DNA of 64,000 bases from Pseudomonadota bacterium (GTDB lineage: Bacteria; Bdellovibrionota_B; Oligoflexia; Oligoflexales; CAIYRB01), in the NCBI GenBank assembly GCA_031416315.1, contig JANOTL010000109.1, forward strand, positions 101,929 through 165,928, in the 5' to 3' direction. Both the position numbers and the translations under genes were made by a program. Shown piece after piece: positions 3,307 through 39,332 of the stretch (positions are counted from its first letter, which is position 1; every line of letters begins with the position of its first letter). The notes beneath the pieces are model-generated. The model was not told the DNA's origin. It saw nothing but the letters and a program-made list of their open reading frames with translations, and ran no database searches.

Positions 3307-3346
3307 ACGGACTCCCGTCGTCAACGCCCCGGTCCGAGGTCAGTGG

Positions 3347-4606: not shown

Positions 4607-5361
4607 TGCGGTCCGTCGTTCTCGGTTTGGCACTGACCTTCGCGCCCGCGGCCCTGGCCGCAGGCGGCAAATGGACGAAAGAAGAGGCGAAAAAAGTCCT
4701 GAAGACGGCGGAGGAGATCCGCTCGCTCGACAAAGCCGAGATCGCGGTCGACCTGCAGACGGTGCAGGATAAACGGGAAACCGTTTATGACCTGAAGATC
4801 GTCCGCTCGTCCGAGCGGCGCGCCTACATCGACTTCCTCGGGCCTAAGGAGGAAAGGGGCCGGAAGATGCTCGCGAAGGGCATGAGCTACTGGTCCACCT
4901 TCCCCGACTCGAAGCGCGTCGTCGCGATCTCGCGGCGCGAGATGATCGGCAACAGCGCCTTCGCGCTCGCCGACATCTTCCAGATGGACGCCGACGAGGA
5001 CTACGACCCGACGATCACGGGCGAGGAAGAGGTCGACGACGGGGCCGGGAAGAAGGTGAAGACCCTGAAGCTCGACATGAAGGGGAAGCACGACGACGCG
5101 CCCTATGCGCGGATCGAGTACTGGGTGGAGAGCACGGGGTTTTTCCCGGTGCGCGCCCGGTTTTACGGCTCGTCCGGGAAGCATCTGAAGACGATGACGG
5201 TCGAGACGCGCAAGGACATCGCGGGGCGGGACCGGCCGGAGATCACCAAGATGGTGGACGAGGTGACGAAGGGTCACGTCTCGTGGTGGAAGACGAAGTC
5301 GATGGTGGCGGCGGAGCCGCCGGATGCGATGTTCTCGAAGGATTATTTGAAGGGGCGGTAG
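4603..5361 (+). CDS. Outer-membrane lipoprotein-sorting protein (LolA-like)
   Basis: Signal peptide; FLGPKEERGRKML, PYARIEYWV, FYGSSGKHLKTM; ATGA-coupled to the permease. Confidence 0.8.
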   Translation: MMRSVVLGLALTFAPAALAAGGKWTKEEAKKVLKTAEEIRSLDKAEIAVDLQTVQDKRETVYDLKIVRSSERRAYIDFLGPKEERGRKMLAKGMSYWSTFPDSKRVVAISRREMIGNSAFALADIFQMDADEDYDPTITGEEEVDDGAGKKVKTLKLDMKGKHDDAPYARIEYWVESTGFFPVRARFYGSSGKHLKTMTVETRKDIAGRDRPEITKMVDEVTKGHVSWWKTKSMVAAEPPDAMFSKDYLKGR

Positions 5362-5427: not shown

Positions 5428-6291
5428 TCAACGCGACTTCTTGCCCGCACCAGCCGACCCCGACCCCGACCCACTTCCTGCTCCTGCCGCACTCGCCACC
5501 GGCTTCATCTTCAGCCGCACCACGATCCTCCGATTCATCGCCTGATTGCTCAAGATCGCAAACCCACGATCGTCCCGGTCCGGCACCAAGGGCTGAAAGT
5601 GCGCCAACCCCGCCGCCCGCATCCGGTGCGGGTCGATCCCCATCTTCGCCAAGACGCGCACGACGCTCGTCGCACGCTCCGACGACAGCTCCCAGTTGTC
5701 GAAGAACTTGGAGTTCTTGATCGGGTCGGAGTCGGTGTGGCCCTCGACCTCGAGCAGCGCGTCGCCCGGCATCGTCTGCAGCTGCCGTGCGACCGCCTCG
5801 ATCGCCGCCATGCCGTCGGCGGTAAGCTTAGCCAGACCGGGGACGAACATGTTGCTCGTGAGCATGACGATCTCGATCGTGTTCGGCTCGGTCTGGCCGA
5901 GGGCGAAGACGGCATCCAGATTCAGGGACGAGGTCGGGTCCTGCGGCGTCGGGGCGCGGTTCTCGTCGGCATCGAGCGCGGCTTTGTCGGCCGTCGTGTT
6001 CGAGCCGACTAGCATCTTCAGCCGCGCCAGCACCTTCTGCGGCTCGTCGTACTTGCCGGTCGACTTCTCGACCTGAAAGAAGAGGATGAAAAAGCACATG
6101 AGCAAGGTGACCATGTCGGCATAGCTGAGGAGCCAGGGCTCGCCGCCCTCTTCTTCCTCGTGATGTCCGCCGGCATGATGGTGACCGCCGCCGTGACCCT
6201 TCGCATGCGCGGCGTCATGACCGTCTTCGGCCTCGCCATCGAAGCTCATGCCCTTGGCGCTCAGCTTCTGGGCGTGGCCGTCACGCTGCAT
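5428..6291 (-). CDS. motB: MotB/PomB-like stator subunit with OmpA-like peptidoglycan-binding domain
   Basis: WLLSYADMVTLLMCFFILFF with the conserved Asp; EVEGHTD, NWELSSERA, NRR. Confidence 0.9.
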   Translation of the reverse strand: MQRDGHAQKLSAKGMSFDGEAEDGHDAAHAKGHGGGHHHAGGHHEEEEGGEPWLLSYADMVTLLMCFFILFFQVEKSTGKYDEPQKVLARLKMLVGSNTTADKAALDADENRAPTPQDPTSSLNLDAVFALGQTEPNTIEIVMLTSNMFVPGLAKLTADGMAAIEAVARQLQTMPGDALLEVEGHTDSDPIKNSKFFDNWELSSERATSVVRVLAKMGIDPHRMRAAGLAHFQPLVPDRDDRGFAILSNQAMNRRIVVRLKMKPVASAAGAGSGSGSGSAGAGKKSR

Positions 6292-7105
6292 TGCCCTTCA
6301 CCTCGCCGCCGCCGCCGCCGGCTCCGCCGGCTCCGCCGGTGACCTTGCCGCGCGCGCTCGGCGGAATGTGACTCAAGAGCATCTCGCGCACCAGGATTCC
6401 TGGCGTCTTGCGCTTGATCAGGAGGATGCCCTCGACGATCATGAGGCGCTTTGCGGCCGTCTTCTGCGTGCGGAACATCAGGTTGTCGGCTACGGGCAGG
6501 ATGAGGACGTTGGCGGTGATGACGCCGTAGAGCGTCGCCGCGAGGGCGACCGACATCGCGGGGCCGATCTTCTCGCCGGCGCCTTCCTGGCCGAGCGTCG
6601 ACAAGAGCGCGATCATGCCCATGACCGTGCCCATGAGGCCGGCGGCGGGCGGGTACTTGCCCAGGTTCTTGAACATTTTCATCTGATTGCCTTCGCGCTC
6701 TTTCTGCACTTCGATGCGGCGGCGAAGGATCGTCTCGATGGCGTCGGCCTCGAAGCCGCCGACGAGGAGGTCTATGGCGTCCTTTAGAAAGAGGTCGGTG
6801 ACCTTGCTCTTGAAGGCGGTGAGGCCTTGCATGTCGATCCGGGCCTGCTCGGCCATCTGCACGAGCTGCTCGACGATCTCTACGGAGTCGTCCTTCATCT
6901 TTTTCGTGATGACCCGGACCATCGGGAAGAAGGACTTCAGCTCGGTCGAGGGCACGGAGATGATGGCGATCGCGGCGGTGCCGATGAAGACGCAGAAGCC
7001 CCCGTGCGCGTCGAGAAAGCGCATCGGCTTGTCGGGGTCCGTCCAGACCGCCATGCCGACCATGAAAATAAGGGCTATGATGAACCCTATGCCGTTTGAG
7101 CTCAT
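6281..7105 (-). CDS. motA: MotA/PomA-like stator subunit
   Basis: YPPAAGLMGTVMGMI, IGPAMSVALAATLYG, FLKDAIDLLVGG, IVEGILLI; overlaps motB. Confidence 0.9.
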   Translation of the reverse strand: MSSNGIGFIIALIFMVGMAVWTDPDKPMRFLDAHGGFCVFIGTAAIAIISVPSTELKSFFPMVRVITKKMKDDSVEIVEQLVQMAEQARIDMQGLTAFKSKVTDLFLKDAIDLLVGGFEADAIETILRRRIEVQKEREGNQMKMFKNLGKYPPAAGLMGTVMGMIALLSTLGQEGAGEKIGPAMSVALAATLYGVITANVLILPVADNLMFRTQKTAAKRLMIVEGILLIKRKTPGILVREMLLSHIPPSARGKVTGGAGGAGGGGGEVKGNAA

Positions 7106-7326
7106 TTACGTTCGTCTTCGTCTTTGGGTTTCGGGAGCGCGCGCGCGGCGGCTTTGAGGGCGCCGCCGAGGCCGCCTAGGCCGAAGGCCTCCTTGCCGTC
7201 GCTCAGGAGATCGAGGCGGAGCTTGCAGGTCTCGACGAAGCGCAGGAACTCGCGCCGAACCTCCTGCTCGAGGCTCGCTTTGAGCTCCTCGGCCTGCTTC
7301 ACGAAATTGGGGGGGCTCTGGTTCAT
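7102..7326 (-). CDS. Small helical hypothetical protein (74 aa)
   Basis: Fills the gap between the FliG-like gene and motA; 4-bp overlap with the motA start. Confidence 0.65.
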   Translation of the reverse strand: MNQSPPNFVKQAEELKASLEQEVRREFLRFVETCKLRLDLLSDGKEAFGLGGLGGALKAAARALPKPKDEDERK

Positions 7327-7338
7327 GCGGTGCTCGGG

Positions 7339-9546
7339 TTAGGCGACGGCGCGCGGAGTTTTCGGCGTGTCGTCGAGGAGACCCTCGTCTTTGAGACGAA
7401 GAAGGTAGGTCGAGATTTGGCGTTGGAGCGCGAGCGACTGCTTCTCGTTCCGCTTCTTGTAGAAGGTCTTGGCGTCGAGGAGCTTGAGCTCGTCCACGAC
7501 GGTCGCGGCTTTGACCTCGGGCAGGGCCTTGATCACCGCTTGGCGCACGGGCTCTGCGGCGGCGAAGATCAGCATGGCGATCTGCTCGTTGGCGCGCTCG
7601 CCGAAGATCTCCATGAGCATCTCCTTCGGCAGGTTCTGGACCGCGTCGAAGGCGACGTAGTGCTTGGCGAAGTCTTTGCGCACGTCGTCTTTGCGCCCGA
7701 TCTCGTCGAGGAGAAGCTTCTGGTCCTCGTCGCCGAGGGACTCGGCGAGACGGCCGAGATAGCGCGCGCCGTCGACGAGGCCGCCAGTCTCCTTGGTCGC
7801 CTCCGCCTTGGCCTTGAGCTTCGGCAGCTCCGCGAAGAGCTTCTCGAGATCCGCAGGCGTCGCGGCGCCGAGCTCGACCACCGCGGTCATGAGCGCCTTC
7901 TTCATGGTCTCGTCGCCCGAGGCCTCGACCATCTTCTTCACGCGCACGGGCGAGAAGCAGGCGAGAAACGCAGGACGCAAGGGCTTAGCGAGCTCGCTGG
8001 TGATGCGGGCCAGCTCGGCGTTGCCGAGGCGCGCGAGCCAGGCGACGTCGGTGAGCTTTAGGATCGGCGAGCCGCCGAACTCCTCGACCGCGATGCGGCC
8101 GTAGAACTCCTGGAGCGCCGCGTTGCGCGAAGCCTTCGCTTCTTGAATGGCGCCCGGACGCGCCAGGTGGCGCTTCAGCCGCTCCATGTGCGCAGCGGTC
8201 AGACCTTTTACGAGCTCGGCCGTGGCTTCTCGGGAAAGCGCCAATAGCAGCGCCGAAGCTAGAGGCAAGGACTGATCGGAGTCGACCAGGTCCTGCATTT
8301 CCCGATACAGAGCAAAGCTCCGCTCTTTCGCCAGAATCTCGATCTTGTCCTGCACGGCGACGAGAAATTCCTCGAGGCGCGCGCGCTCGCCTTCATCCGT
8401 TGGCATCGAGTTGCCCGCGGCTCCGCCGGCTCCGTGCCCTTGCCCTTGCCCGGCCTCGCCCTTGGACTCCTCGTCCCGGTGCCCTTCCGCCGCCGCCTTC
8501 AGCCTGTCCGCCCTCGCCGCTTTTTCCATTTCACGCTGCGCCTCGACGTGCGCGGTCGCAGCCTCTTTCATGCCGCTACCGATGCTGGCGAAGCCGCCGG
8601 CCAAGGCCGTCATGCCCTTTTTGAACGCGCCCGAGCCCATGACCAAGCCGAGGATCACGGCGACCGCGAGAATGATGCCGAAGAGGAGGACTTGGATCTT
8701 GGCGAGGCCGCCCAGGGCGCCCCCGTCGTCCTTCGCCGCCCCGGCGCCGGCTTCGGTCGCGGCCGACGCGGAGCCCGAGCCTGAGCCGCTCTCGGCCCTC
8801 TTCCTTTCTTCCGCTACGGCGGCCTCGACGGCCAGAAGTTTCGTCTCGAGCTCGCGCACCTTGGCTTCGCGCGTCGATAGCTCACGGGTCTGCTCGAGGC
8901 GGTTGCGCTGGATCTCGAGGTCCCTTTTGGCGACCTCGAGCTTCATCCGCTCTGACTCGAGGTCGAACTTCGCCTTGTCGCTGCTTGCGCCGTTCAAGGC
9001 CGCGGCCTGCGCGCGCTGCGCCTCGCTGCGAAGCTGGTCGGGGATCGACTCGGTGACCAAAGTCTCCGTGCGGACCGTCAGGGTGCGCGAGGCGCCGTCG
9101 ACGGCGAGCTTCTTGCCGACGGCCTGCTCGAGGATCTTGCGCTTCGCCTCAGGGATCCTCCGGTCGAAGGTGATCTCGGCGCGGATGGCCTTGATCTTGC
9201 GGCGGACGACGCCCGCGGAGCCCTCGGCCATGCTCGAAAGCTTTGCCGGGTCGACCTTCAGCGTCAGGTAGGGAAGGCTCGCGGAGCCGCCGCCCGCGCT
9301 CTCGCCGGCTGCGACGGTGCCTTCGTCGAGCTCGACGTCGGCGACGACGAAAAACTCCTCGGGCGCCAACTGGCCGCGCAGGAGCGTCGTGATCTCGCTC
9401 TCGATCTGCCTTTGTCCGGCGAGCCGCTCGGCCGGATCCACGTCCGCACGCGCCGCGCTCGTCGCGAGGAGCGCGACGATGACGGCGATCGCTGCGAGGC
9501 GCAGCGCAACCAACGGCGACGTTGGCGTGGAGTATGGGAAGCGCAA
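7339..9546 (-). CDS. Membrane-anchored FliF-like/FliG fusion protein (signal peptide, ring-like domain, coiled coil, TM, FliG M and C domains)
   Basis: TTG at 9546 after GGAG (start uncertain); signal ...ATSAARA; TM IQVLLFGIILAVAVILGLVMG; C-terminus GG...HYVAFDAV...KAATVVDEL...LQRQISTYLLRLKDEG resembles FliG-C. Confidence 0.8.
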   Translation of the reverse strand: MRFPYSTPTSPLVALRLAAIAVIVALLATSAARADVDPAERLAGQRQIESEITTLLRGQLAPEEFFVVADVELDEGTVAAGESAGGGSASLPYLTLKVDPAKLSSMAEGSAGVVRRKIKAIRAEITFDRRIPEAKRKILEQAVGKKLAVDGASRTLTVRTETLVTESIPDQLRSEAQRAQAAALNGASSDKAKFDLESERMKLEVAKRDLEIQRNRLEQTRELSTREAKVRELETKLLAVEAAVAEERKRAESGSGSGSASAATEAGAGAAKDDGGALGGLAKIQVLLFGIILAVAVILGLVMGSGAFKKGMTALAGGFASIGSGMKEAATAHVEAQREMEKAARADRLKAAAEGHRDEESKGEAGQGQGHGAGGAAGNSMPTDEGERARLEEFLVAVQDKIEILAKERSFALYREMQDLVDSDQSLPLASALLLALSREATAELVKGLTAAHMERLKRHLARPGAIQEAKASRNAALQEFYGRIAVEEFGGSPILKLTDVAWLARLGNAELARITSELAKPLRPAFLACFSPVRVKKMVEASGDETMKKALMTAVVELGAATPADLEKLFAELPKLKAKAEATKETGGLVDGARYLGRLAESLGDEDQKLLLDEIGRKDDVRKDFAKHYVAFDAVQNLPKEMLMEIFGERANEQIAMLIFAAAEPVRQAVIKALPEVKAATVVDELKLLDAKTFYKKRNEKQSLALQRQISTYLLRLKDEGLLDDTPKTPRAVA

Positions 9547-9635: not shown

Positions 9636-10451
9636 CTAATGGGTATTTTTTGCCGGGTCGGCGACGGCGGCCGTGGCTTTGGCGGGAACGAGGAGAACGT
9701 AGAAGCTGCCGACCTTTTCCGGGCCCTTGCCGTCGCCTCGATCGATGGCGACGCTGTAGGCGCCCTCGGCATAGACGGGCGCGACGAAGTGCGTGCCGGT
9801 CGCCAAGCCGACCAAAGGCAGGCGCTCGCCGGTGCTTTCGACGCCTAGATGGATCTTGTACTTCTCCTTGGCTTTCGTCGGCGGGAACCAAAGGATGGGG
9901 AGCGCGACCGGGAACTTGTCGGTGATGACGATGGCACCCTTCTTCGGGTGCAGGATCGTCGTCGCGATCGGCGCCATCGAAGGCAGGTCTTTGCCGCTCC
10001 CGCCTTCGGGCTTGGGCTCTTTCGGCGGCTTTTTGTCGGCTTTGGCGGTGAGGTAGATGGCGTTGATGCGCTCCCATGCGCTTTTGAACGCGACGCCGAC
10101 CGTCGGCGACGCCTTTGCGCCCTGCGCCAGGCCGTCGGCGTAAACGCTGGTGAGATCGACCTCGCGTAGGACGTCGACGGTGAGGCGGCAAATCAGGCTG
10201 GAATCGGCGTTTAGACTCATCTCGCGAACGTTGCGGCCGGGTTCTTTGCGGGCCAGGAGGAGGCTGCCGCTGGTGAGCGTCTGCACCAGGCTGTCCTCCG
10301 GGAGGTCGACGCCGGGCTTCAATTTCAGCCATTCCGCGGCGCGGTCGCTCCAGACGGCGAAGTTGCCGTCGATGGCCAACACCTCGAAGGTGACGGCCGC
10401 GCGCGCCGGGCTCGCGGCGAAGAGGCAGAGGAGAAAGAGGACGCGGATCAT
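9636..10451 (-). CDS. Secreted protein with FecR-like N-terminal region and beta-rich C-terminal domain
   Basis: Signal peptide ...ASPARA; EVLAIDGNFAV...WLKLKPGVDLPEDSLVQT resembles the FecR-type beta motif; 4-bp overlap with the phosphatase. Confidence 0.6.
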   Translation of the reverse strand: MIRVLFLLCLFAASPARAAVTFEVLAIDGNFAVWSDRAAEWLKLKPGVDLPEDSLVQTLTSGSLLLARKEPGRNVREMSLNADSSLICRLTVDVLREVDLTSVYADGLAQGAKASPTVGVAFKSAWERINAIYLTAKADKKPPKEPKPEGGSGKDLPSMAPIATTILHPKKGAIVITDKFPVALPILWFPPTKAKEKYKIHLGVESTGERLPLVGLATGTHFVAPVYAEGAYSVAIDRGDGKGPEKVGSFYVLLVPAKATAAVADPAKNTH

Positions 10452-12334
10452 GCGGCCGCCGCCGGCGTCTCGTCTTCGCCGTCCGGCTTCGCCTCGGGGC
10501 TTGCCGACGCGACGCGACGCTCGAGGAGCAGGATGCAGAGGTCGTCTCCTGCCGGCGCGCCGCTCAGGTAGCTCGTCCAGCTGGAAACGATCGCATCGAG
10601 GACCTGCTCGCCGTCACGGCTCGCGCCTTCAGTGAACATCCGCCGCAAGCGGCGGCTGCCGTAGATGCTGCCGCCGCCGGTCGGGCGGCCTTCGATCAGG
10701 CCGTCGGTGTAGAGGAGGAGACGAAACGATGCCGGCACCTTGATGGTCGCGACGCCGAACTTGGGCTCCGCCTCGACGCCGAGCGGCATCGAGCGCAGCT
10801 TCACGAGCTCCACCGAAGCTTCGACGCCGTGGCCCGATTCCAGCAAGGGGAAAGGATGGCCGGCGTTGGTGACGACGAGGACGTTCTCCGCCTTGCGCCA
10901 AGTGATGATCTGCATCGTGACGTGAATCTTGTCGAGCGCGAGGTTGCGCAGGCGATCGTTGACGGAGCTCATGAGCTCGATGGGCGCGATACCAACGGTC
11001 TCGACGCGCTCGTCGAAGAGGGCCGCGATGATGGCGGTGAACATCGAGGAGCCGACACCGTGGCCTGAGACGTCGGCGATCGCGACCGTGACGTCGCCCG
11101 AGGCCTCGTCGAAGTGGCAAGCGTACCAGTCGCCGGCGCATTCGTCGGCGGCTTGGTACCGCATCATGATCTTCAGCTCGGGATGGTCCGCGGGCAGGTT
11201 GGGGACGCGCAGGAAGGTGTCCTGCAGGCTCTTTGCGATGGCGAGCTCGTTCGCCATGCGGAGCTTTGCCATGCGGTCCTCCATCAACTTGCCGATCGCC
11301 TGGTCGCGGGAGGTCAGGCGTTGCGCCATCGTGCGGAAGGATTCGACGAGCGGGCCGAGCTCGCCGAAGCCTTTGTTGCGCGGCAAGCGTGAAAAGTCGC
11401 CGCGGCCGATGTGGACGGCCAGCTGCGACAGCTCGCGGATCGGGTGGAGGAGCATCGTGGCTGGCAGGGCGACGAGGGTCACGGCGCTGACGAGGAGGCC
11501 GAAGAGGATGAGAGAGAAACGCTTGCCGAGCTCCCAGACGACACCCAGGGCCTTGGCCTTGGAGGTTTCGGCGAAGAGCACCAAATTCGTCCCCGAAATT
11601 TCCAGGTAGAAGCCGTAGACCGGCCCAGCCTGGCCGCCCGGGATCTCGATCTGCGAGTTGGTGAGGTTCCGCTTCACGAAAGCCGCGACCAGCGGGCGCT
11701 GGGCGAACGTGGATTGGTTGATCTCGGGGGTGTTAGAATGAATGAGCAGCCCTGCGTGCGTCACCAGATAGAACTTCGAATGAGCGGCGCTGATCGCGCT
11801 GCCGCCCACCGCTCCCTTCTTGGTCATCCATCCGCCCACGTCCTCCTGCCAGAGGTAGAGCTTCTTGCCACTCAGAAAGGCTACGAAGGATTGATCGCCG
11901 TATCGAACGATCGTCCAGGTGTCGGGCCGCGGCGAAAGCTTCAGGCCGAGCTCGAACCACCTGAGTTTTTTCGGCAGGCTCCCGGCCTCGCGCTCGATCG
12001 GCGAAGTCGGTGTGGCGCCGAGCTTGTAGGTCGCGGTCGCGCCGCCGGTCGGGCCTTGATCGAGGCGCGGCACGCAGCTCTCGGCGAGGCGTGTGCGCGC
12101 GGCGTTCGCCTGGCGCTCGAGGTCGAGGTAGAGAATCGCCCAGGTGTCGCGCAGCTTGTTCGCGTAGAGGATCTCGAAAGCGGCGACGCCGGCGAGCGTG
12201 CCGGCGACGACAACGGCGACGGCGACCACCGCCACGATCAAGCGCGTGAGCGTCCAGAAAGCCACGAAACGCGTCTTCAAACGCGCGACGAGCTTTTTCT
12301 TGGGCGTTCCGGGTTTGAGCGCGGGAGTGCTCAC
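10448..12334 (-). CDS. Membrane sensor PP2C/SpoIIE (RsbU-like) phosphatase with HAMP domain
   Basis: 2 TMs, HAMP (PIRELSQLA...ELGPLVESFRTMA), AGDWY, IADVSGHG, NAGHP, YTDGL, DDLC. Confidence 0.92.
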   Translation of the reverse strand: MSTPALKPGTPKKKLVARLKTRFVAFWTLTRLIVAVVAVAVVVAGTLAGVAAFEILYANKLRDTWAILYLDLERQANAARTRLAESCVPRLDQGPTGGATATYKLGATPTSPIEREAGSLPKKLRWFELGLKLSPRPDTWTIVRYGDQSFVAFLSGKKLYLWQEDVGGWMTKKGAVGGSAISAAHSKFYLVTHAGLLIHSNTPEINQSTFAQRPLVAAFVKRNLTNSQIEIPGGQAGPVYGFYLEISGTNLVLFAETSKAKALGVVWELGKRFSLILFGLLVSAVTLVALPATMLLHPIRELSQLAVHIGRGDFSRLPRNKGFGELGPLVESFRTMAQRLTSRDQAIGKLMEDRMAKLRMANELAIAKSLQDTFLRVPNLPADHPELKIMMRYQAADECAGDWYACHFDEASGDVTVAIADVSGHGVGSSMFTAIIAALFDERVETVGIAPIELMSSVNDRLRNLALDKIHVTMQIITWRKAENVLVVTNAGHPFPLLESGHGVEASVELVKLRSMPLGVEAEPKFGVATIKVPASFRLLLYTDGLIEGRPTGGGSIYGSRRLRRMFTEGASRDGEQVLDAIVSSWTSYLSGAPAGDDLCILLLERRVASASPEAKPDGEDETPAAAA

Positions 12335-12339
12335 TCGAT

Positions 12340-12594: not shown

Positions 12595-12694
12595 GGCGTT
12601 TCGTCCTATGAAACTTCGGCCTGGCAGTCCTTGCCCGGCAGCTTCGTTTCGGCACGATCTGCACGGCGGTTGATTCGACTCGGAAAATTGTGGC

Positions 12695-13141
12695 TTGGCG
12701 CGTGCGGCAAAGGTCGCGGAAAAGGCGAAGGAGAACGCGGTGAAAGACGACAAGGACGCGGTCACGCGGATGTTCGGCAGCGAGCGCGTGAAGGGCCTGG
12801 GGTTCAGGCGCATCAAGCCCGATCTGAGCTTTGGCGTGTCGAAGCTGACCGACGTTTCGAGCTGGTTCGGAAGTGCCGCGATGCCGGCGCCGCCGGAGCC
12901 TTCGGGCGCGACGAGCGACGCGTCTGCGGACGCTCAGGGCGACGCCGGCAGCGGCGTGAGCTTCGGCCTCACCGCCTGGCGCGACGCGCTCTCTTCCGCG
13001 GATCGTGACCTCGCCGACGCGATCGGACTGGCGCTCGGCGCGCTCGACGACGCGGAGCGCGAGCTGCTCTTCTCCGGCTGCGAGCCGGACGAGCGCCGGA
13101 CCCTCGAGGCTTGCTTCAGCTTGGCCGAGGCGAAGCCGTGA
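12695..13141 (+). CDS. Hypothetical protein
   Basis: First ORF of a divergent overlapping operon; GTGA overlap with the next gene; start uncertain. Confidence 0.55.
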   Translation: MARAAKVAEKAKENAVKDDKDAVTRMFGSERVKGLGFRRIKPDLSFGVSKLTDVSSWFGSAAMPAPPEPSGATSDASADAQGDAGSGVSFGLTAWRDALSSADRDLADAIGLALGALDDAERELLFSGCEPDERRTLEACFSLAEAKP

Positions 13142-13674
13142 GCCTCCGCGCCGCCTTCGCTTTGAGCTTGGTCGTCTTGGGCTGTCGGACATCCGGGACG
13201 CTGGACGCACCGGTGCCGACGACGGCCGTGAGCCTGGGCCAGGACCTGAAGCCGGCGGCGCGCCTGGGACGCCTCCCGATCCCGGTCGACACCGACGACG
13301 TGATGCAACGTTATGCGTTGCAGCCCATCGGCGCCGCCACCGAATATCTGATCGTCGTCACGCCGGACAAGGTCGACGGCAAGATCACCGTACCGCTCGG
13401 CAACGGAAGTAGCAGCGCGGACGCCGCCGTCGTCTACAACGAGTATCTGAACCAGCTGCTGCGCGCGCATCGTCATCTTCTGCGCGGCGAGGTGCGCGAC
13501 GCCATGGTCGTGCTCGACCGGCTCGACGAGCGCTTCGATCAGAGTTACGGCGGCCTCGTCCTGCGCGGAAACCTGCATTACCTCCTCGGGAACGCCGGCG
13601 AGGCCGCGCGGCAGTTCGAGCTGGCGCGACGGATCTTCCCGGGCGCGAAGGCGCTCGAGGGGGTGAAGAGATGA
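13138..13674 (+). CDS. Lipoprotein with C-terminal TPR
   Basis: MSLRAAFALSLVVLGC lipobox; LRGNLHYLLGNAGEAARQFELARRIFP is TPR-like. Confidence 0.75.
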   Translation: MSLRAAFALSLVVLGCRTSGTLDAPVPTTAVSLGQDLKPAARLGRLPIPVDTDDVMQRYALQPIGAATEYLIVVTPDKVDGKITVPLGNGSSSADAAVVYNEYLNQLLRAHRHLLRGEVRDAMVVLDRLDERFDQSYGGLVLRGNLHYLLGNAGEAARQFELARRIFPGAKALEGVKR

Positions 13675-14279
13675 GGGCTTTTTTCGCGGGACTATTGCTG
13701 CTCGCAGGCTGCTCCACCAGCTACGACATCCGCACCAAGCCGGACGGGGTGAAGCTCTACGTCGGCGACAAGCAGATGGGGACGACGCCCTTTGCCCTGA
13801 GCTCCGGCGACGCGCCGAAGTCCGAGGCCGGCGGCGTCCTGGCGCGCCTCGAGATCGAGGGCTACCAGCGCGTCTTCGTGTGGCTGCCCGACGACGGCAA
13901 GCGCTACGACCTCACGTTCAACATGACGCCGTTCTTCCGCCGGGCGCGCGACGAGTCGGTGGTCGGCGATCTCGAGATCGATCGCATCGACCTCTACCGA
14001 CTGAGCGAGCGGCTCCTCGACCTGCAGACGGATCTTCTCGCTGGGACGCAAACGGCGAAAAACCCGGCGGCTGAGGAGTTGAAGCGCCTCATCGACGCGA
14101 ACCCGACGATGGGGTCGATGCATTTTCTGGAGGCGCTCAGGCTCTTGCGCGAAGGCAAGAAGGACGAGGGCAAGCTGGTCCTGAAGACGGCCCTGCGCTT
14201 CGCGCCGAGCGAGTTCGACTTCCTATCCTTGATGAACGAGCTCGGAGGCGACGCGAATGCGGCTAAGCCTACGCCTTAG
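13671..14279 (+). CDS. PEGA-domain lipoprotein with TPR-like C-terminus
   Basis: LAGC lipobox; IRTKPDGVKLYVGDKQMGTTP...EGYQ. Confidence 0.8.
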   Translation: MRAFFAGLLLLAGCSTSYDIRTKPDGVKLYVGDKQMGTTPFALSSGDAPKSEAGGVLARLEIEGYQRVFVWLPDDGKRYDLTFNMTPFFRRARDESVVGDLEIDRIDLYRLSERLLDLQTDLLAGTQTAKNPAAEELKRLIDANPTMGSMHFLEALRLLREGKKDEGKLVLKTALRFAPSEFDFLSLMNELGGDANAAKPTP

Positions 14280-14901
14280 CGCGGTCCTCGCGGCCGGCGC
14301 GGCGGCTTTGGTCGCGGGCGCCCCGGCCCTGTCCTTGCCGAACCAAGAGATCACCGTCGGGGTTCCGTCCGGGAACTACACGAAGACGACGATCTCGGAG
14401 GTGTATAAGGGCACGGCGCCTTACGGCTTCGCGACGGAGTACGGGATCTTCCTCGACCCTAAGCTCGCGATCGCCGGGCAATTCGAGCTCAACCTGGAGC
14501 CGACGAAGCAGAGCGCCGTCCTCCTCGGCGGCGCTGCCGGTTTGAAGTACTACGTGGTCGGCGGCGACAACCGCATCCTCTCCGACACGTACGTGAAGGG
14601 CGTCGGGCGGCCGAAGCTGAATGCGTTCCTGGTGGTCGGCTTCGGCGGCAAGCAGTACGACTTCAGCGTCCCGGAGAAGGTGGAGGACGACAAGAAGGCC
14701 GGATCCATCTTCGAGAAAGACGGCAAGGATCTGGCGAAGGGCTCGGTCGTCGGCCTGTCGGTCGGGCTCGGGGCGCAGTATCCGATCTTCTTCGATCTGC
14801 AGCCTGGATTTCGGGTGCAGATGTTCAAGTCGTTTTCCGCGGAGAATCAGCCGGATATTACGGTGATGGCGGTGTGGTTGTCGTGTGGGTTTGGGCTTTA
14901 G
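14257..14901 (+). CDS. Small outer-membrane beta-barrel protein
   Basis: Signal peptide, alternating amphipathic strands (GAAGLKYY, LSVGLGAQYP), C-terminal VWLSCGFGL. Confidence 0.7.
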   Translation: MRLSLRLSAVLAAGAAALVAGAPALSLPNQEITVGVPSGNYTKTTISEVYKGTAPYGFATEYGIFLDPKLAIAGQFELNLEPTKQSAVLLGGAAGLKYYVVGGDNRILSDTYVKGVGRPKLNAFLVVGFGGKQYDFSVPEKVEDDKKAGSIFEKDGKDLAKGSVVGLSVGLGAQYPIFFDLQPGFRVQMFKSFSAENQPDITVMAVWLSCGFGL

Positions 14902-16197: not shown

Positions 16198-19100
16198 TTA
16201 GGGTACCGTGAAGTCGTACTTTTTGCTACAGGTGCGCAGCGAGGGCTCGAGCGGCGAGCCGATCGGGCCGGCTGGGTTGGCCGCGTGCAGGGCCGTGAGT
16301 CCGACCGCGTCCACGCCGATCTGCTTCGTGGCGTTGGAGCCGAAGCAGCGGACGCCTTCCGGGACGACGACGCAGGCGTGGTTCTTGCCGGCCGCAACCG
16401 CGTACACATTGCTCAGTTGCGCCGGACCCGTGTCGAGGGCCATGACCGGGACCGAGGAGGCGGCGGTGTCGTCGTTCCCCAGCTGTGAGCTCGCGTTCGC
16501 GCCCCAGCAGGCGAGCTTCTTGGTGGCGAGGAGCGCGCAGGCGTGCCCGCCGCCGACCGAGATCGAGACGACGGAGCCGAGGCTCCCCGTGCCGCCTACG
16601 TTCTGGACCGTGGTCGGGTTCTTGATCTGAGTGTAGGTCAGCGGAGCGTTGACCGCCGCGACGCCGTCCGCATTCGAGCCCCAGCACATCGCCGTGCCGT
16701 CGGCGAAGACCGCGCAGCTCGTCTTGCCGCCGGCCGCGAGGCCGACTGCGTTGGCGATGGCGGCGTTGCTGACGTCACGTACGAGAACTGGGAAGAGGCG
16801 GACCAAGTTGGCTGCGCCGGGCGCAACGCGGGTCAGGAGCGTGGCGTCGTTGTGGTAATAGTTGTTGTCGCCGACTTGGTCCATGTCGTTGGCGCCCCAG
16901 CAGAGGAGCGACTGGCCGGTGACGTTGGCGCCGGAGATCGAAACGCGAAGGGCGCAGGTGTGGGCAGAGCCCGCGGCGATAGAGAAGGCGTCGGTGAGAT
17001 CAGCGGTGGTATCGACGTTGTCGGAGGCGTCCTTAGCGGTGACGACCTTCACCGGCCTAGGGAGAGCGGTGTGGACGGTGAGGCCGTCGCCGAGCTGGCC
17101 GTTGTCATTCCTGCCCCAGCAGAAGACTTTGCGCGTGGTGTCGACGGCGCAGGTGTGGTCGTCGCCGGTCGCGATCGCGACGATATTCGAAAGATTGGCA
17201 GCTTGTTCCGGGATCGGCTTCCGCACGAAGGCCGGGTATCTCAGCGACGCGCCGGCGCCCATCTCGCGGTTGGCGCCGAGCTGGCCGAACTCGTTCGAGC
17301 CCCAGCAGACGACCTTCTTGGCGGAAGTGAGGGCGCAAGCGTGATTCTTGCCCGCCGCCACCGCGACGAGACCGAAGAGCTCGGAATCAAAGTCCGAAGG
17401 ATCGCGAATTGCCTGCGGATCGGACGCGCTGGCCGTGGTCGAGTGCAGCACGTTGCGACCGAGCTTACCGAAGTCGTTGGCGCCCCAGCAGGAGACGCGG
17501 CCGTCGAGCTGCAAGGCGCAGGAGAAGCCGTCGCCCGCGGAGACGCTGGCCATCTTCGCCGAGGAGCAGGAGGTGCCAAGGCAGCCGTCGAAGGCCATCT
17601 GGGCGCCGGCCATCGAGGCCTCCGGCGTCGGGACGAGGGCGGGGATCGGACGGCGGAGGTTGGTCGGCGCGCCGAGGTCCTTCAGCTCGAGGAAGCGGCC
17701 GATCTTCGCGGTCTCGGTGGCGCTTCCCACTTCCCAGCTCGTAAGGTGCGTGCCGAGGTTAGTGAAGATGTTCAACTGGCCGTCGACGGAGTCGTAGTCG
17801 GCAGTGACGGCGAGCGAGGTGACGCCGGTCCCGAGGACACCAGTCGCAGTGGTGCATGCGCCCGCGCCGCAGTTGCTGCTACCGGTCCGGATGGTGATCG
17901 AGCCGGGGAGCACCACTTTGCACTGGCTAGAGAGCGTTGGTGCGAGCCATGCAAGGCCGAAGCTGCGCGACGTGTCGTCCGGAATCGAGAAGCTGATCGT
18001 ACCTTGGTTCGAAACCTTGGGGGTCGTCGCGTTGGTAGTGACGGTGTAGACGACGCGGCCTTGGCCGGAGTAGCCAACGGTCGGCGTGAACGTGAAGGAG
18101 CAGATTCCCGTCGTGGCGCTGCAGGTCGGGCCGGTGGTGATCGTGCCGCCGGAAGGCGTGCCGACGACCGTCAAGGCCGTGGCCTTGTCGTTCTCGCGGT
18201 CGGTGTAGTCGGTTCCAAGCGCAAGCGCGACCACGATCGGCGTGCGGTCCGGCATGACGACCGGGAAGCTCGTGGCGACCGGGGCCTCGTCGCTCGCCGC
18301 GATGTTGATCGTGATGATTGCCGCGTTGGAGTCAACGTTCGGCGTGCCTGAGATGCGCGTCTTGTAGTGGACCTTGGCGTTGCCCGTGAATCCGTTGTTC
18401 GGCGTAACCGTGAAGTCGCACGCGCCGGAGGAGCAAGCAATTTCCGTCGGGTTGCCGGCGATCGTGCCATTCTCGAGCGACTGGATCAGAAGCTTATCGA
18501 CATTCGGGCCCGGATTGTACGTGTAACCGGCGCCGCGGGCGACGGTCAGGGGCTTCGGCTGGTTCAGGCTGCCGTTGACGGTGAAGCTCTGCGAGCGCAG
18601 CTTCGGCTTGAAGTCGACGGTGACGGTCGCCGGCGTCGTGGCCGTTTGGCCCGCCGTCTTTACGTTGAAGTTGAAAGTCGCGTTGCCGTAGTGTTGGGCG
18701 TTCGGCAGGAAGCTGACGAGGCAGATGCCGGCTGTGTCGCATTCGATCGGGCTATCCGGCGACAGGGTGCCGTTGACCGCGCCCGAGACTTGGAGCTCCG
18801 TGGCGAGATCGGTCGCGTTGACGTCGGTGTAGCCGGTGGTCGCCCCTTTCGAGATAGCGATGAGCTTGGCGGTCTCGTCGGAGCCAATGAAGCTGAGGTT
18901 GTAGACGACCGGAGGCGTCGGCACGGGGACGACGTCGATGGTCAGGTTCGCGTAGTTCGACCATGTCGGGGCGCCGGCGGGGCCGGCCTTTAGGCGGTAC
19001 TTGAGCGCGACCGTGCCGACGTAGACGGGAGTCGGCGGAGTGTAGGTGAACGTGCAGGTGCCGGTCGTGCAGGAGCCGATCGCGACCGTGCCCTTGGCGG

Positions 19101-22100
19101 CTGGGACTGGGGTCAAATCGTCGTTGACGATTTGGAGCTGCGTCGCTTCGTCGTAGATATGCGTCCCGTGCTTCGCGTAGTCGGTGACCTTCACGATCGA
19201 GCCGTTGAGCGGTGTGTTTTCCGACGTGGTCCGCGTGGCGTTGGCGGCAAGGAGGTGCTTCGAGACCGCGATCGTACCCGTTCCGGTCCCCGACCAGACT
19301 TCCCAAACGCTGACCTTGTAGTCGAAGGTGAGCGAGCCCTCAAAGTTGAGCGCCGGCATGATCTTCAGCGTCAGGATCTTGGTCACCTGATCGAAGGACG
19401 ATTCCTGGATCGAGCCGTTCTGCACGTTGAACGCGTCGATCTGAATGTTTTTGCCAGTGAAGTTCGCGTCGTCGGCGTAGGTGTAGCCCCAGACCGTGGA
19501 GCCGTTCTCGCGGCCTAGGTAAACGGTGATGGGCTCGTTAACCGAGGTCGTGAACTGAGCGGGGCTGGTGACGACCGGGGTCGCTTTGACCCAGAAGCGA
19601 TAGAGGCCGTCGGCGACGATGTAGGTGTTTCGGTTGCCGCTGTCATAGTGGAATGGATACGGGACACCGCGCGTGTGGTAGGTGCGCGAGTATGTGTCCC
19701 CGACGTACGCCTTCCACTTGAACTCGACTAATCCCCAGTCGAAGGTCGACGTCGTTTTGAAGTCGAAGGAACAGGTGCCGTTAGCATCGCAGTTGGTCGT
19801 TTCGCAGGCAAAGTCCACTGACGTCGTGCCGGAGCAGGTGACGCCCGAGCCCGTGATCGCCGCGGAAACAAAGGGCGATCGCAGGCGAGCCAAGGCTTCC
19901 GGGGCGAATCCGAAGACCTTGATCTTCGTCGCGTTGGCCGTAAAGCCGGTGGCTGTGTCTAACGGCGTGAAGTATTCGTGATCTTTGTAGTCGGTGACGG
20001 GGGCCGTGCCCCGCTTACGGAAGCTGATCACCTTGGTCGAGTTCTGGGCCACGTTCTCGATCATTTTTTCATTACGAATACATATGTAGTCAGGGTCGGT
20101 GTACAACGGCTCGTGCGGGCAGATGTTGCGCGTGGCGACCTTGGGAATGATGCGCGTAAAGAAGGTCTGGGTGTTGGTCGCACAGCCGAGGTCGTCGTAG
20201 CCGCGGAGGAGAACGGACGCATAGCTCAGCTGGTCGTCGTTGAAATCCGTCGGCGTGGCGAAGCCGGGGAGCGACCAGTCGAAGGTGCAGACACCGTTGA
20301 CGCAGACGGGCGTCGAGATCGTGCTGCCATAGGCATCGACGACCGTGATACTCGAAAGCGGACGACGCTCGGCTCCGGAGGCGGGGTAGTTGTAGTGATT
20401 GCCATTGGCGCCGACCGCGCCGATCGTGGTGCTGAACGTGGAGCCTTGGTCCGCGTTGCTGTTCAGGAAGACGTGAGGCTCGAGCTCGCCGGAGAGGAGG
20501 CAGCCCTGCCCGCCGCCGTTCAACGAGACCTTGAAGGTGATCTTCTTCCAGTCGCTTTTCGTGACCAGCTCGTTGTTGAAGAAGTGCGTGCCTTGTGGGG
20601 TCGAGTACGTGAGGTTCTCAGCCGACACGACGCGGTACCAGAAACCTGCCGAAGCCGGGTAGCTCGGGTACGTGGTCGCGGACTTGAATCCGCCCTGGCA
20701 GAAGCCGCTGCTGCAGACCATCGGGCCGTCCAACGTGCCGCCGGTCGGGGCCGGAGCGCCGTTCGTGCCGTCGCCGATCTCGATCGAGGTCGCCAAGTCG
20801 GAGCCCGGGTAGGGCCAACCCGAAGGAGCCCAGTGGTTGACCGCGAACGCGTCGTCCGGATCGATCGGAGCGATGCCCGGCTTCAGGATGAAGTTCTTGG
20901 TGGCGTTGCGCCCGAGGGTGAAGTCGGTTTCGTAATTGGCAACCGTGACGTCTGGGTCTTGGGTGCCGTGCACCGGCAAGTGCTCGTTGACGAAGGGGGT
21001 CGAGTCGCCGGAGGAGATGTAGATCGAGAGAGTCGACCACAATGGCTGCTCTTTCAGCACGCCGCCGTTATCCGTCGTCACCTTGTATTTGACGGTCGCG
21101 ACGTCGTTGACCTTCGTGCCGTTCGGCGTGAAATTTAGGGTGCAAGCACCGCTCGGGTCGCACTCGAAGGCGTCGTTGGCGTCCTTGCCAGAGGCATAGT
21201 TGAGCGTGCCGCCAACCAAGGTCGCAGGATCGATACGGACCTTTACGGCCTTGTCGTCGTCGACGTCATAGTAGCCGAAGCGCCAGTGCTCCCACCATCC
21301 CGGGTTACTGTCGAGGTTGCCGCGACGCGGGTTGTTGGCGGCTGCGGCGTTTATGTAAGGCTTGAGGACGATGTTCATGGGCGTGCCGACGCCGTTCGCA
21401 TAGAACGTGCCGGTCGAGAGCAAGGCGTCGGGGTGCGCGACGAAGAGATACTGGCGGTTCAGCATCAGCGTTTGCGCGTTGTCGCCGAACACCTGCGGTG
21501 CGTCATCGACCGCCGTGTAGGTCAGGGTCATGGTCTTGTTCGCGGACCAGAGGCCGTTGGCCTTCACTCGGTACGTGATGATCCCCTGGCCGGCCTTGTC
21601 GAAGGTCGGGGTAACGTTGACATTGCAGACGCCCGCCGGGTCGCAGCCGGTCTGCGCGGCGACTTGGAACATGGCGGCGTCAAAGCTGATGACCTCCACG
21701 TCGGTCGCGCGCATCGGATAGCCGTCCGGATCGCTCACGTAGGAGGCATTGATCTGTGTCGCTGTCCTATAGCCGTCGCTCGGCTGCAGGACGATCGTTG
21801 CGGTCGTATCCTCGAGCATCGTCTGGGTGATTGCGTCCGCGACGGGCGCCAAAGCTTCCTTGATATCGAACGTGATGACGCCCGTGTCAGTGCTCAAAGT
21901 GTTGGTATTGATCACATTGCTATGCGTCTTAAGCTTCCAGCTGATGAGGCGGGTGTCGTTGACGACGTCGACTGGAGGGGTCCAAGTCCACTTGCAAGCG
22001 GCCGTGCCGCAGGTACAGACGACATCGGGCGCGCTGACGGCACAGATCGTATTGTCACCACCGTTGGCGACGGAGACGCCGGAGAATGTGCCCGAGACGA

Positions 22101-25100
22101 GCGCGTTGCTGGCGTTCAGGAAGCGCAGCTCGACGACGTCGTCGTCGTTGGTGTCCTTGTACCATTTACCGTTGCCGCACGAGATGTTGTCGCGCGCCAT
22201 GGACGTCGGCTTCGGCTGGTTCTTGAAGACGATAAGGGTCTTGTCGCAAGGATCCGGAGGGTTGTCGTTGGGCTCGACGTGGATGCGCATCCACGTCGAC
22301 GTGTTGGTCAAAAGGTCCGACTTGACGTCGTCCACCGCGCCGCAGCCGCCGTTGAGGGTGCGACAAACTTGATACTGAAGGTCTACGTCGCCGTACCAGT
22401 AGGAGGTCGTGCGGAACGTGCCGGTCCATACGCCTGCCGAGATCGACTGGTCGACGATGGAGCCTTTGCTGGAGAAGTTGCCGGCGGGAGTGACGATCAG
22501 CAAGTCCTGCAGCGTCGCAACTTGGGGGTTGTCGGCCTGGGTGTACCCGTTTCCGAGCTCGATGCGCAGCGGAACGTCCGTGACCGGAATCAGGACGCCG
22601 TTAACTAGGACCTGCTGCTTGTCGAAGGCCCGGCCGGTGAGGGCGTGCTCGAAGACCTGCGAGACCGTGCCTGTCGCTTCGTCTGAAACCGAAGTGAAGT
22701 GCGTCGAGTCCGAGGAATGCGTGACGCGAACGCGATATTTGAAGGTCGAGTCACCGGTGTAGACCAACTTCGCCGGCGCGAAGCTCGCGGAGCAGATGCC
22801 CGTCGCGCAGCCCGTGACCGTTATCGTTCCCCAAGGCACGCCGGCCTTGTTCGGTTGCTGCGTGATCTCGATGTCGGTCGTGAGCTCCGGCAACAGTCCC
22901 CAAGGCGCGTCATACGCGTCGAACTCGACCTGAGCGGGAACCGCGGTGTTGGCGAACTTCAAGGGAACCGTACGGCCTTGGACCGTATTGAGCGTGAACG
23001 GCTTGGCAACGGTGCGCGGCATGATGATGATCGAGTACGTCGTCTCTTCGCTCGGGAAGGGTAGGTACTTGACCGCGTCGCCGACGACGGTCTTCAGCTT
23101 GAACGTGGCAGCTGCCGTCGTGTTATCACCCGAGACGTTATTCGAGTCCGGAACGAAGTCGGCATAACAATTGTCGCCGGCGCAGGAGAAGTTGCTGGAG
23201 AAGGAGCCGCCGGTCTGGCTGACGACGAGGATCTTGGCCGGGTTCGCGTGCGTCCCGGCACGGCTGTGGGTGTAGTCGATGCCTTTTTTCACGACGATGC
23301 GCATCTGCTCGCCGGCCGGCTTCGTCACGTCGCCGATGCCTTCGACCCAGCGGAGCTCGCGGGTTGCGGCTGTACGAATCGGGCGGGGGAAGACATCGAG
23401 GTTGTAGACGCCGACTGGCGTAGTCGACCACACGGTTCCGTGGGCGGCAGTGGTAGCGACCACGTAGTCAAACTGCGTGTAGCTGGTCGGATCGGTTGTG
23501 AAGAAGCCGTCGTTCGGAGTGAAATTGGCGGAGCATACCCCAGAACCAGTGCAGCTCCAGCCGCTGAGGGTGCCGTCGGGGGTCAAAGTCAACGAGCCAG
23601 GCCGCGCCCAAAAGGAGCCTGGATCGGATAGGAGATGTGTATAGCCAGAGTTCAAGCTCACCGAGACCGCCGTCGTGACGGGCGAGCCCGCTGGGCCTGC
23701 CTCGACGACCGCCGTTTTCGTCGTCGCCTTGGCGCGCGGGTAGAAGTAGACGGCTGAAGTGCCAAGTATGTGCGACTCGAAGTTGTTCACGTCGCGCACG
23801 TGGTAGGTGAAACTGGCGTTCGTCGCGAACGACCCGCCGGAGAGCGGTGTGACGTTGACGTCGCAGACGTTCGCAACGCAACTTTGCCACGTGCCGCTGC
23901 CGGCGATCGTCGCGTTGTTGACCGAGGCGACTTTGTACTGCGAGATCGTGTGGCCGAGAGTATGCTCAAAGCCGCCGACGCTGGTACCGCCGGTTCCGGA
24001 CGCGATCGAGACGACCTTGACGACGTCCTCTTCGCCTTCGTTGGCGCCCGCCGGGTAGTTGCGCGAGTTGGCGAGAACGCGCGGCGTCATCGTGATGGTG
24101 ACGGTGCTCGCGTTCATGGCGGCCAACGGTGTGATGCCGTCGGCTTCGACGTAGCTCAGATCGCGCGTCCGGAAGGTAAAGCCGCCGGAGAGATTGCCTT
24201 CGCCGTCAGCCCAAGCGCGTGGCGTGAAGCGGATGATGCAATCGCCGCTGCTGCAAGGACAATGGAGCTCTGTGCCGGCTACCGTACAGCTCAGGTCCGA
24301 GCCGCCAATGCTCGTGCGGTACTTGACCGTATCGCTAAGCGCATTGGAGATGTTCGTGATCACGACGCTGCCCGCGTCGTGGTCGTCTTGGTGCGTGTAG
24401 CCGAGGCCCGCGCCGCGACTGATCACGATGTTGATCGCCGTGCCTTCGGTCGTGGACGCGGTCAAGTTTTGCGTGCGATGTCGCGGCACGAAGGTGACGC
24501 TACCAGATGAAGCAGTGTCCTGAGTGACGCCGTTGACCGTTACTTTTGTCGTGAACGTGACGACCTGCGCGGTAGTGCTCAAAAGTTTGACCGTGCACAC
24601 GCCGGTCCCGCTGTTACAAGTCGGCGGTTCGGCAAGGGAAGCGCCGCCGCTGATGTTTTCGACCGCGATGGTGTCTGCGTAGTGCTGGGTACCGTGGACG
24701 TTTGCCTCGTTGTTCGGGAACACATAGCCGCATTGCGTGACGGCGCCGGCCGGGCAGAGTCCGGAAACTCTGTTTCTAACTTGAAAGGTATAGGTTTCGT
24801 TCTCGATCGCGTTCCCAAAGCTTATGTTGTCGGGCTTTGGCAGCGGGCGGAAGTAAACGTAGCCGATGCCATAGAGCTGGCTCGTGGGCGGTTTTACAGT
24901 CTTCGTCTCGATAAAATGCTCGATTTGGTACTTGAAGCGTGCCCAGCCCCAGCGCTGATTCGTGCCAGGGCTGCCGCCCGGGCCATAGTCGCTCGCAAGA
25001 AATGAACCCGTTGATATCGGGGACAGATCAATCCGGCAATTCCCGGTGCTCGAGTCGCATAAGGTTGCGTCGTTCTCGATCGTCGGGCCGTCGAGGTTGG

Positions 25101-39174: not shown

Positions 39175-39181
39175 GCCGGGT

Positions 39182-39208
39182 TCTTCGGCAAACCCGGAGA
39201 AAGGTTTA
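39182..39208 (-). promoter_or_regulatory. Sigma28 (FliA)-like promoter of the giant gene
   Basis: TAAA-N15-GCCGAAGA ending 7 nt before ATG. Confidence 0.7.
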
Positions 39209-39304
39209 CATAAACCAGGTTTCCCCTGGATCGCGCTAGGAATTCTGGCCACTTGCCGACGGGCAGAATGCCGTAATCTTCGGACTGCAAGTTTCCGGCG
39301 GGGC

Positions 39305-39332
39305 TCAACTAGGACGGGCTTCTTGCCGAAGC
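39305..39332 (+). promoter_or_regulatory. Sigma28-like promoter of the FN3 lipoprotein
   Basis: TCAA-N16-GCCGAAGC ending 8 nt before ATG. Confidence 0.55.

Follow-up and report, generated by a model that had tools for sequence, protein, structure and literature searches.

Can the rotor and stator of the bacterial flagellum work as a motor apart from the flagellum? To our knowledge, the gear formed by FliG and MotA is known only from that organelle. The question is raised by an operon in a 64,000-nucleotide stretch of DNA from an Oligoflexales bacterium (assembly GCA_031416315.1, contig JANOTL010000109.1, positions 101,929 to 165,928; hereafter 'the window'), which encodes a MotA/MotB stator together with one protein that joins a FliF-like ring-building domain to FliG. 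An original prediction, made from the letters of the window, had read this operon as a minimal non-flagellar rotary motor. We find a conserved machine that resembles the core of the flagellar motor, yet is not a member of the flagellum. We estimate a probability of roughly 60% that it acts as a stand-alone, ion-driven rotary motor made from flagellar rotor and stator parts and working apart from the flagellum.

The rotor protein carries a FliF-like ring domain

The four open reading frames (ORFs) of the operon were found where they had been placed, all on the minus strand: a 735-residue protein (P0001), a 74-residue ORF, motA and motB (Table 1). A 12-nt gap follows the 735-residue gene, and overlaps of 4 and 11 nt lead on to motB. 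The start of the large ORF is uncertain (GTG 9615, TTG 9546 or TTG 9513); TTG 9513 adjoins the start of a homolog, P0006, that is 93% identical to P0001. The signal peptide and single transmembrane (TM) helix expected for this protein correspond to hydrophobic segments at residues 12–30 and 286–304, and the motifs that had been quoted are all present (IKAIRAEITFD at 118, AVGKK at 142, RTLTV at 154, YVAF at 630 and the torque-helix segment at 675–687).

For comparison we searched 131 genomes of the phylum, took loci from the best 150 matches listed, and kept 53 rotor genes of at least 600 residues from 42 genomes (including that of the window and a paralog on contig C130 of the same genome), leaving out short, partial and ordinary FliG matches. 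An unindexed protein search gave 62 representatives, about 40 of them 610–740 residues long, and 40 long ones were aligned for a family profile; word-based protein searches gave six proteins each. The same architecture recurs in intact frames of 640–860 residues across the 53 loci.

An AlphaFold2 model of P0001 (mean pLDDT 80, pTM 0.49), helical in its C-terminal part, was compared with 48,161 solved chains. The best fold for the periplasmic domain was the third ring-building motif (RBM3) of FliF (8z5v, Z 13.1, rmsd 2.6 over 96; 6scn, Z 13.0), with SpoIIIAG (Z 8.6), PrgK (7.9) and SpoIIIAH (6.9) ranking lower. The FliF likeness that the original prediction had noticed is thus strong by fold; by sequence it is weak, the first half of RBM3 scoring 30 against shuffled maxima of 17.8–20.5 and the second half scoring 20.3, not above shuffles (maximum 20.75). 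A 42-sequence profile of the ring domain ranked FliF first in the PDB (E 0.005) and picked both halves of this genome's FliF (E 0.012) after the rotor paralogs. Because the fold comparison is decisive where the sequence test is weak, we regard the identity as settled: as modelled, the N-terminal domain is FliF-RBM3-like. A further Atlas search with residues 34–180 returned scores below 0.9, which serve as a lead only.

The rest of the FliF periplasmic region is missing. No match to PF01514 (RBM1/RBM2) was found in the rotor protein or in 40 family members, the sole match in the genome lying on contig C67, and the periplasmic part of the model is too short for either domain. The insert that splits the ring domain is 44 residues long (25–70 in relatives), shorter than the beta-collar of FliF. 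Between ring domain and membrane lie 60–188 residues (median 104) in the 53 relatives, 47 of which have exactly one central TM helix and none later.

The cytoplasmic part is a whole FliG

The middle and C-terminal FliG domains that had been predicted are both present, and the account was incomplete in that FliG_N is present too. In Pfam searches of P0001, FliG_N exceeded the cut-off (E 5.7e-6) and FliG_C fell just under it (E 1.1e-4); FliG_C was matched by 37 of the 40 family members, and the 40-sequence profile matched Aquifex FliG (3hjl) with an E-value of 2.5e-23. The 12 best rows listed by Foldseek were all FliG or C-ring chains, and its alignments to full-length FliG spanned 327–346 columns, from which it follows that the N domain is included. 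Comparison with solved chains likewise recovered FliG (1qc7, Z 11.7, rmsd 2.5 over 89/89). Sequence identity to FliG is low, at 12–19%.

Motifs were counted in 52 long relatives aligned with the two ordinary FliGs of this genome. YVAF aligns with MFTF at the MFxF hinge position, as had been proposed, and the hydrophobic pattern is kept across the 52. The EHPQ(R) loop, which binds FliM according to the available text of PMC7355467, occurs in both ordinary FliGs and in none of the 52 relatives; because of this absence, chemotactic switching has likely been lost in the rotor family. For the rotor–stator contacts (R90/D288–D289 and E98/R281, numbered as in the accessible part of PMC12505986) we mapped positions through this genome's own FliG and MotA. 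The R281 equivalent is R or K in 42 of the 52 relatives and the D289 equivalent is D or E in the same number, a pattern indicating, at the level of sequence, that the torque helix is under selection across the family.

The stator is of the flagellar type

MotA from the window scored far better against PomA (E 6.6e-40) than against TolQ (E 7.8e-6), and matched a solved MotA with an E-value of 4.6e-31; MotB scored 3e-13 against MotB_plug and 0.21 against ExbD. The pair is thus neither an ExbB/TolQ-type A subunit nor an ExbD/TolR-type B subunit. The aspartate motif of MotB is present in 33 of 37 MotB-like ORFs. For the 74-residue ORF we found no Pfam or NCBIfam family and one homolog, just upstream of motA at locus L041 (E 1.3e-4).

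Rotor and stator genes are linked and co-inherited

The linkage to motAB proposed for this locus holds in most homologs. Within 6 kb of the 53 rotors we found motA in 38 and motB in 35, along with a PEGA/TPR lipoprotein (40), a FecR/FN3-like protein (27), a HAMP–SpoIIE phosphatase (20) and an outer-membrane barrel (17). Many rotor contigs end early, which affects these counts; where at least 4 kb was available on each side (23 loci), the figures were lipoprotein 18, motA 15, motB 14, FecR/FN3-like protein 13 and barrel 9. By chance, a random stretch of this genome lies within 6 kb of a motA in 0.9% of cases. The linkage of rotor and motA spans 12 of the 19 families of the phylum; the partner profiles were grown from these same loci, about one quarter of which come from one genus. 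Three related loci belong to Oligoflexales/Oligoflexia metagenome-assembled genomes. Look-alike long FliG_C clusters in the Atlas come from Bdellovibrionota, Balneolota, Bacteroidota and Pseudomonadota and are leads only.

In a tree, 34 MotAs from these cassettes form one clade (support 0.96) apart from the three other MotAs of this genome, with only five outside sequences included in the test. Distances among rotors are mirrored by those among MotAs (r 0.84), cutting across host families, and the rotor/MotA pair of the window falls among genomes from other families and not among the cassettes of its own family. Judged by these trees, rotor and MotA are co-inherited, L043 being an exception.

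Two loci hold split genes, motB falling into two ORFs at L041:6741–7560 and the rotor gene being divided at L056:13094–15281; each may be an assembly error or decay.

The cassette occurs in genomes without flagellar genes

The genome of the window encodes an ordinary flagellum elsewhere (FliG on contigs C50 and C16, FliF on C67, FliM and FlhA on C45, and eight flagellin matches), with three MotA/MotB pairs besides that of the window; two of the four pairs lie near rotor genes of the present kind. We therefore rejected the possibilities that the window holds the only fliG of the genome or a mis-assembled flagellar operon, the ordinary set being on other contigs. The window itself agrees with the original prediction: in its scanned ORFs we found no export gate, rod, hook, filament or FliM/N, nor any other flagellar Pfam family.

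The same genome holds further FliG-like genes. A second FliG of ordinary length with EHPQ (C16:235–1242, L064) lies outside any flagellar cluster seen, and three more membrane-anchored FliG-like proteins are encoded on C130 (71356–73899, L062; two tandem Cys-containing RBM-like modules, no motAB nearby), C136 (31388–33118, L188; 4.3 kb from another motA/motB pair) and C217 (5412–7292, L187; a very diverged paralog abutting a PEGA/TPR lipoprotein).

The proposal that the motor may power something other than a flagellum is supported by two relatives that keep the cassette and have no flagellar export, rod, hook or filament matches. In draft genome G044 (completeness 96%, contamination 1%) we found no match to FliF, flagellin, FlhA or rod and hook proteins; its sole FliG_C match is the rotor, accompanied by motA, motB, the lipoprotein, the barrel and the FecR/FN3-like gene. 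Draft genome G018 (93% complete), likewise without FliF, flagellin, FlhA or rod/hook matches, keeps a more distant 592-residue rotor with motAB and a TPR gene. Since the cassette occurs in relatives without flagellar genes, it is likely a separate machine: an undescribed rotary envelope machine built of flagellar motor parts.

Some flagellum-less genomes (L177:6734–13383, L178, L180 and L182) carry a separate MotA/MotB pair in one operon with an unknown 350-residue gene and a 1370–1440-residue AAA_11/AAA_12 helicase, a layout that we take to recall Zorya-type systems.

Conserved partners and the surrounding genes

The locus is not 'minimal', as had been stated, because four more conserved partner families lie at 9636–14901 (Table 1). 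The FecR/FN3-like family profile matches a FecR protein of this genome (E 1.2e-4) and, weakly, FN3 structures, and belongs to no clear family. The HAMP–SpoIIE phosphatase is probably a regulator of the motor; its best neighbour match reaches an E-value of 1e-92, and the next paralog in this genome 5e-24. In the second PEGA/TPR lipoprotein the lipobox cysteine is invariant in 36 of 36 aligned sequences. The barrel, single-copy in this genome, has no PDB match by sequence and was identified by its fold (NspA, OmpA, OmpW and OprF, Z 17.0–17.5).

A giant lipoprotein encoded beyond the barrel is a possible cargo, its link to the motor being weaker than that of the other partners. Its N-terminal region matches large lipoproteins in three other rotor loci directly and in seven after iteration, a search that may drift to generic FN3 proteins. 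A 426-residue paralog of this region is encoded head-to-head with it at 39017–40297 (+), and these two are the only matches of the N-terminal profile in the genome.

Table 1. Features of the rotor locus in the window
Feature	Position	Strand	Remarks
Single-chain rotor protein, 735 aa (P0001)	7339..9546	-	Signal peptide, FliF-RBM3-like domain, coiled-coil stalk, TM helix, FliG N/M/C
Periplasmic split ring-building motif, residues 34-164	9055..9447	-	alpha-beta-insert-beta-alpha-beta (model 38-161)
Long helix, residues 191-253, predicted coiled-coil stalk	8788..8976	-	AlphaFold2 model; between ring domain and membrane
Single inner-membrane helix, residues 286-304	8635..8691	-	Hydropathy 2.97
Cytoplasmic FliG N, M, C, ~residues 385-725	7372..8394	-	YVAF at MFxF; D685/E686 kept; EHPQ absent
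74-aa helical ORF	7102..7326	-	Stop overlaps motA start; found only in the window's sub-branch
MotA, flagellar/PomA type	6281..7105	-	R89 kept; no acidic residue at E98 equivalent
MotB, plug/TM Asp59, OmpA-type peptidoglycan-binding domain	5428..6291	-	MotB_plug and OmpA over cut-off
Secreted 271-aa protein, FecR-like N-terminal beta domain and FN3-like domain	9636..10451	-	Directly upstream of rotor gene
Membrane HAMP + SpoIIE (PP2C) phosphatase	10448..12334	-	Conserved neighbour
PEGA-like/TPR lipoprotein 1	13111..13674	+	Lipobox in sequence; TPR match
PEGA/TPR lipoprotein 2	13671..14279	+	Lipobox in sequence; PEGA E 0.006
8-stranded outer-membrane beta-barrel, OmpA/OmpW/NspA fold, signal peptide	14257..14901	+	Model pLDDT 86
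Giant 7684-aa lipoprotein, FN3/Ig repeats, C-terminal RCC1-like propeller	16198..39252	-	Possible cargo

Two further genes lie inside the cassette region, a 158-residue ORF at 12340–12816 (-), for which the fetched loci contain no homolog, and a 394-residue thioredoxin-like membrane protein at 14962–16146 (-). The genes at 987–5361 (+), which converge on motB, encode an MBOAT acyltransferase, an unknown 325-residue protein, a LolC/E-like permease and a LolA-like protein, and were not seen among the conserved neighbours of rotor loci. A weak PilZ match lies at 46953–47486 (+; E 0.003). A promoter scan found one site against 0.7 expected, which is not evidence.

A proposed mechanism and its alternatives

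From the domain anatomy, folds, gene linkage and occurrence described above we infer how the machine might assemble, dock, turn and act. Sec would export the N-terminus of the rotor, so that its RBM3-like domain sits in the periplasm. A stalk some 9 nm long (63 residues of helix) would carry the domain, and one TM helix would anchor the protein. The RBM3 domains would then self-assemble into an S-ring-like ring that templates a FliG ring under the membrane, making a separate FliF tail unnecessary. Co-inherited MotA5B2 units would be anchored to peptidoglycan by MotB and conduct ions at Asp59; contacts of MotA R89 with FliG D685/E686 would make the FliG ring rotate. Because there is no FliM site, and hence no CheY switch, turning would be one-way. 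Jointly, we consider these steps quite probable.

The output is more tentative. Large surface lipoproteins could be the target of the raised periplasmic ring, reached by way of the barrel, the FecR/FN3-like protein and the PEGA/TPR lipoproteins. The most likely effect would be to move or display adhesins with which the cell attaches to a surface or glides, and the HAMP–SpoIIE phosphatase would serve as regulator. That force reaches the outer membrane and its lipoproteins, and that adhesins move, we would put at about one chance in three. The Agl–Glt and Gld systems also use outer-membrane parts and surface adhesins.

Several observations weigh against a stand-alone rotary motor. Ring formation, binding and rotation of the rotor are predicted here from genes and models, and a pTM of 0.49 leaves the relative arrangement of its domains unsettled. 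The GG hinge between FliG M and C, which had been thought kept, is not: the GG at 588–589 is not the aligned one, and the canonical GG aligns with D592–G593, with glycine at the second position in 5 of 52 relatives. Of the predicted torque-helix equivalent, the segment and its acidic pair (D685/E686) stand, and the R281 equivalent in P0001 is Val with Lys next to it. In MotA the R90 equivalent is kept as R89 and the E98 equivalent is Thr or Lys, depending on which of two alignments is used. The window copy thus keeps the R90–D289 pair and, with Val at R281 and Thr or Lys at E98, has lost one of the two charge pairs on both sides. Among the 34 cassette MotAs the R90 equivalent is R or K in only 20 and the E98 equivalent D or E in 22.

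The distribution of the genes also has its exceptions. No motA lies within 6 kb of 15 of the 53 rotors, and the same holds for 8 of the 23 whose flanks extend to 4 kb or more in each direction. Neither the barrel (17 of 53) nor the giant lipoprotein (seven other loci) is anywhere near universal. The MotA near one rotor (L043) comes from another branch than that rotor, and co-inheritance is not contact. Flagellin matches were found in 41 of the 42 genomes with long rotors, all but G044. Four genomes without flagellar genes (G046–G049, loci L045–L048) encode a soluble, 330-residue protein from the branch of the window that consists of FliG only. Ring domain, TM helix, stator and cassette partners are all missing from the 9–17 kb fetched, and no separate RBM–TM gene was found beside these short forms in those stretches.

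Among other explanations, the one that survives best, and which we nevertheless think unlikely, is a non-rotating, load-sensing ring, in which stators dock on a FliG ring that does not turn, and contact with envelope or surface is signalled to the HAMP–SpoIIE phosphatase by ion flow or by stalling. The linked phosphatase would suit such a sensor, as would the decayed charge pair of the window copy, the varying MotA charges, the persistence of soluble FliG-only members with no stators nearby, and the lack of an encoded rod or other known shaft. The phosphatase, however, is missing from most loci, the torque-helix charges are kept in 42 of 52 rotors and the MotB aspartate is kept, and MotA5B2 engaged on FliG is a torque source by the known mechanism.

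It is less probable again that the cassette energises envelope transport (TonB/Tol-like, or export of giant lipoproteins), the RBM ring then serving as a channel and not as a drive wheel. RBM rings do form conduits in injectisomes and in SpoIIIAG/AH, and the barrel, TPR lipoproteins and FecR-like protein are linked, with giant lipoproteins nearby. An 8-stranded barrel of the OmpA/OmpW fold is known to be too narrow for protein passage, however; the conserved neighbours seen include no ATPase, export gate or TonB-dependent receptor; and MotA is of the flagellar type, not that of ExbB/TolQ.

A place in the flagellar motor of the same cell, as an accessory or alternative component (a spare MS/C-ring subunit or a stator dock) comparable to the several MotAB pairs of Bdellovibrio, might be expected from the flagellated state of this genome and of nearly all carriers, and genomes of Bdellovibrio and like organisms (BALOs) with 1–4 motAB pairs are treated as having flagellar stators in the available text of PMC11323537. 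We hold this to be improbable, given that the cassette is kept in G044 and G018 without flagellar gene matches, that the rotor lacks RBM1/RBM2 to hold an export gate and a site for FliM, and that its partners are not flagellar families. Decay of a duplicated flagellar operon, to which the low identity to FliG (12–19%), the split motB and rotor genes of L041 and L056 and the very diverged C217 paralog could point, is very improbable in view of the intact frames of one architecture in 53 loci of 42 genomes, the conserved non-flagellar partners and the look-alike clusters in several phyla.

Relation to known systems

The stand-alone motor proposed here shares with the flagellar motor core (FliF, FliG and MotA5B2/PomA5B2) the RBM3 fold, a full FliG N/M/C, an MFxF-type hinge, the acidic pair of the torque helix, a flagellar-type MotA, and a MotB with plug Asp and OmpA domain. 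It differs in being a single chain, with a signal of the cleavable type and one TM helix, in place of two proteins (FliF with two TM helices and a separate soluble FliG). It lacks RBM1/RBM2, EHPQ and a conserved GG, and has a short beta-collar insert and a long stalk; genes for an export gate, rod, hook or FliM/N are absent nearby; and it has its own lipoprotein, barrel and FecR/FN3-like partners and occurs without flagella.

A natural FliF–FliG fusion reportedly occurs in Chlorobaculum; our literature search did not confirm it. The nearest precedent for the rotor protein is the FliF–FliG fusion of Chlamydiaceae, also a natural fusion in a non-flagellated setting. That protein, as portrayed in the accessible sections of PMC4768692, has about 330 residues, two TM helices, RBM2 without RBM3 and a FliG-M-like region only, and is tied to the injectisome; those sections describe no stator for it. 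The rotor described here, in contrast, retains RBM3 and the complete FliG, and has a stator beside it. Engineered FliF–FliG fusions rotate, according to the portions available of PMC7355467 and PMC4768692. The engineered or selected Salmonella and Vibrio fusions (PMC7355467, same portions; PDB 8z4d) form rings as a single chain, which in Salmonella rotates, and differ in being laboratory constructs with all FliF domains in a full flagellum.

Non-flagellar 5:2 motors (ExbBD, TolQR, AglRQS, ZorAB and GldLM) are, in the text available from PMC12505986 and PMC12204202, ion-driven inner-membrane motors that do outer-membrane work. None has a FliG rotor or RBM3 ring, and the MotA studied here scores far above TolQ for PomA/MotA. 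SpoIIIAG and the injectisome proteins SctJ and SctD share the ring-building motif (split also in SpoIIIAG, Z 8.6) and have no FliG part or stator; FliF is the closer fold to the rotor (Z 13). In the main texts of open-access papers and preprints we found no description of the cassette; supplements may list members (the BALO motAB tables of PMC11323537 and the 379 stator proteins of PMC12505986).

Significance

A three-gene rotor–stator core in flagellum-less cells would show that the motor can exist apart from export apparatus and filament. This would inform the question of the flagellar motor's origin or re-use, and the core would be the simplest natural setting in which to reconstitute the generation of torque. 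In genomes of predatory bacteria, some 'extra' motAB pairs and some genes annotated as 'fliG' may not be flagellar. A bolder possibility, which we hold with some doubt, is that these loci encode a separate class of rotary machine, the mirror image of the injectisome: a flagellar rotor ring and stator with no export apparatus or filament. If so, a turning periplasmic ring would act through lipoproteins and a barrel of the outer membrane to drive giant lipoprotein adhesins on the cell surface. Bacteria of several phyla, with several motors per cell, would then have a novel mode of surface motility or of contact with prey.

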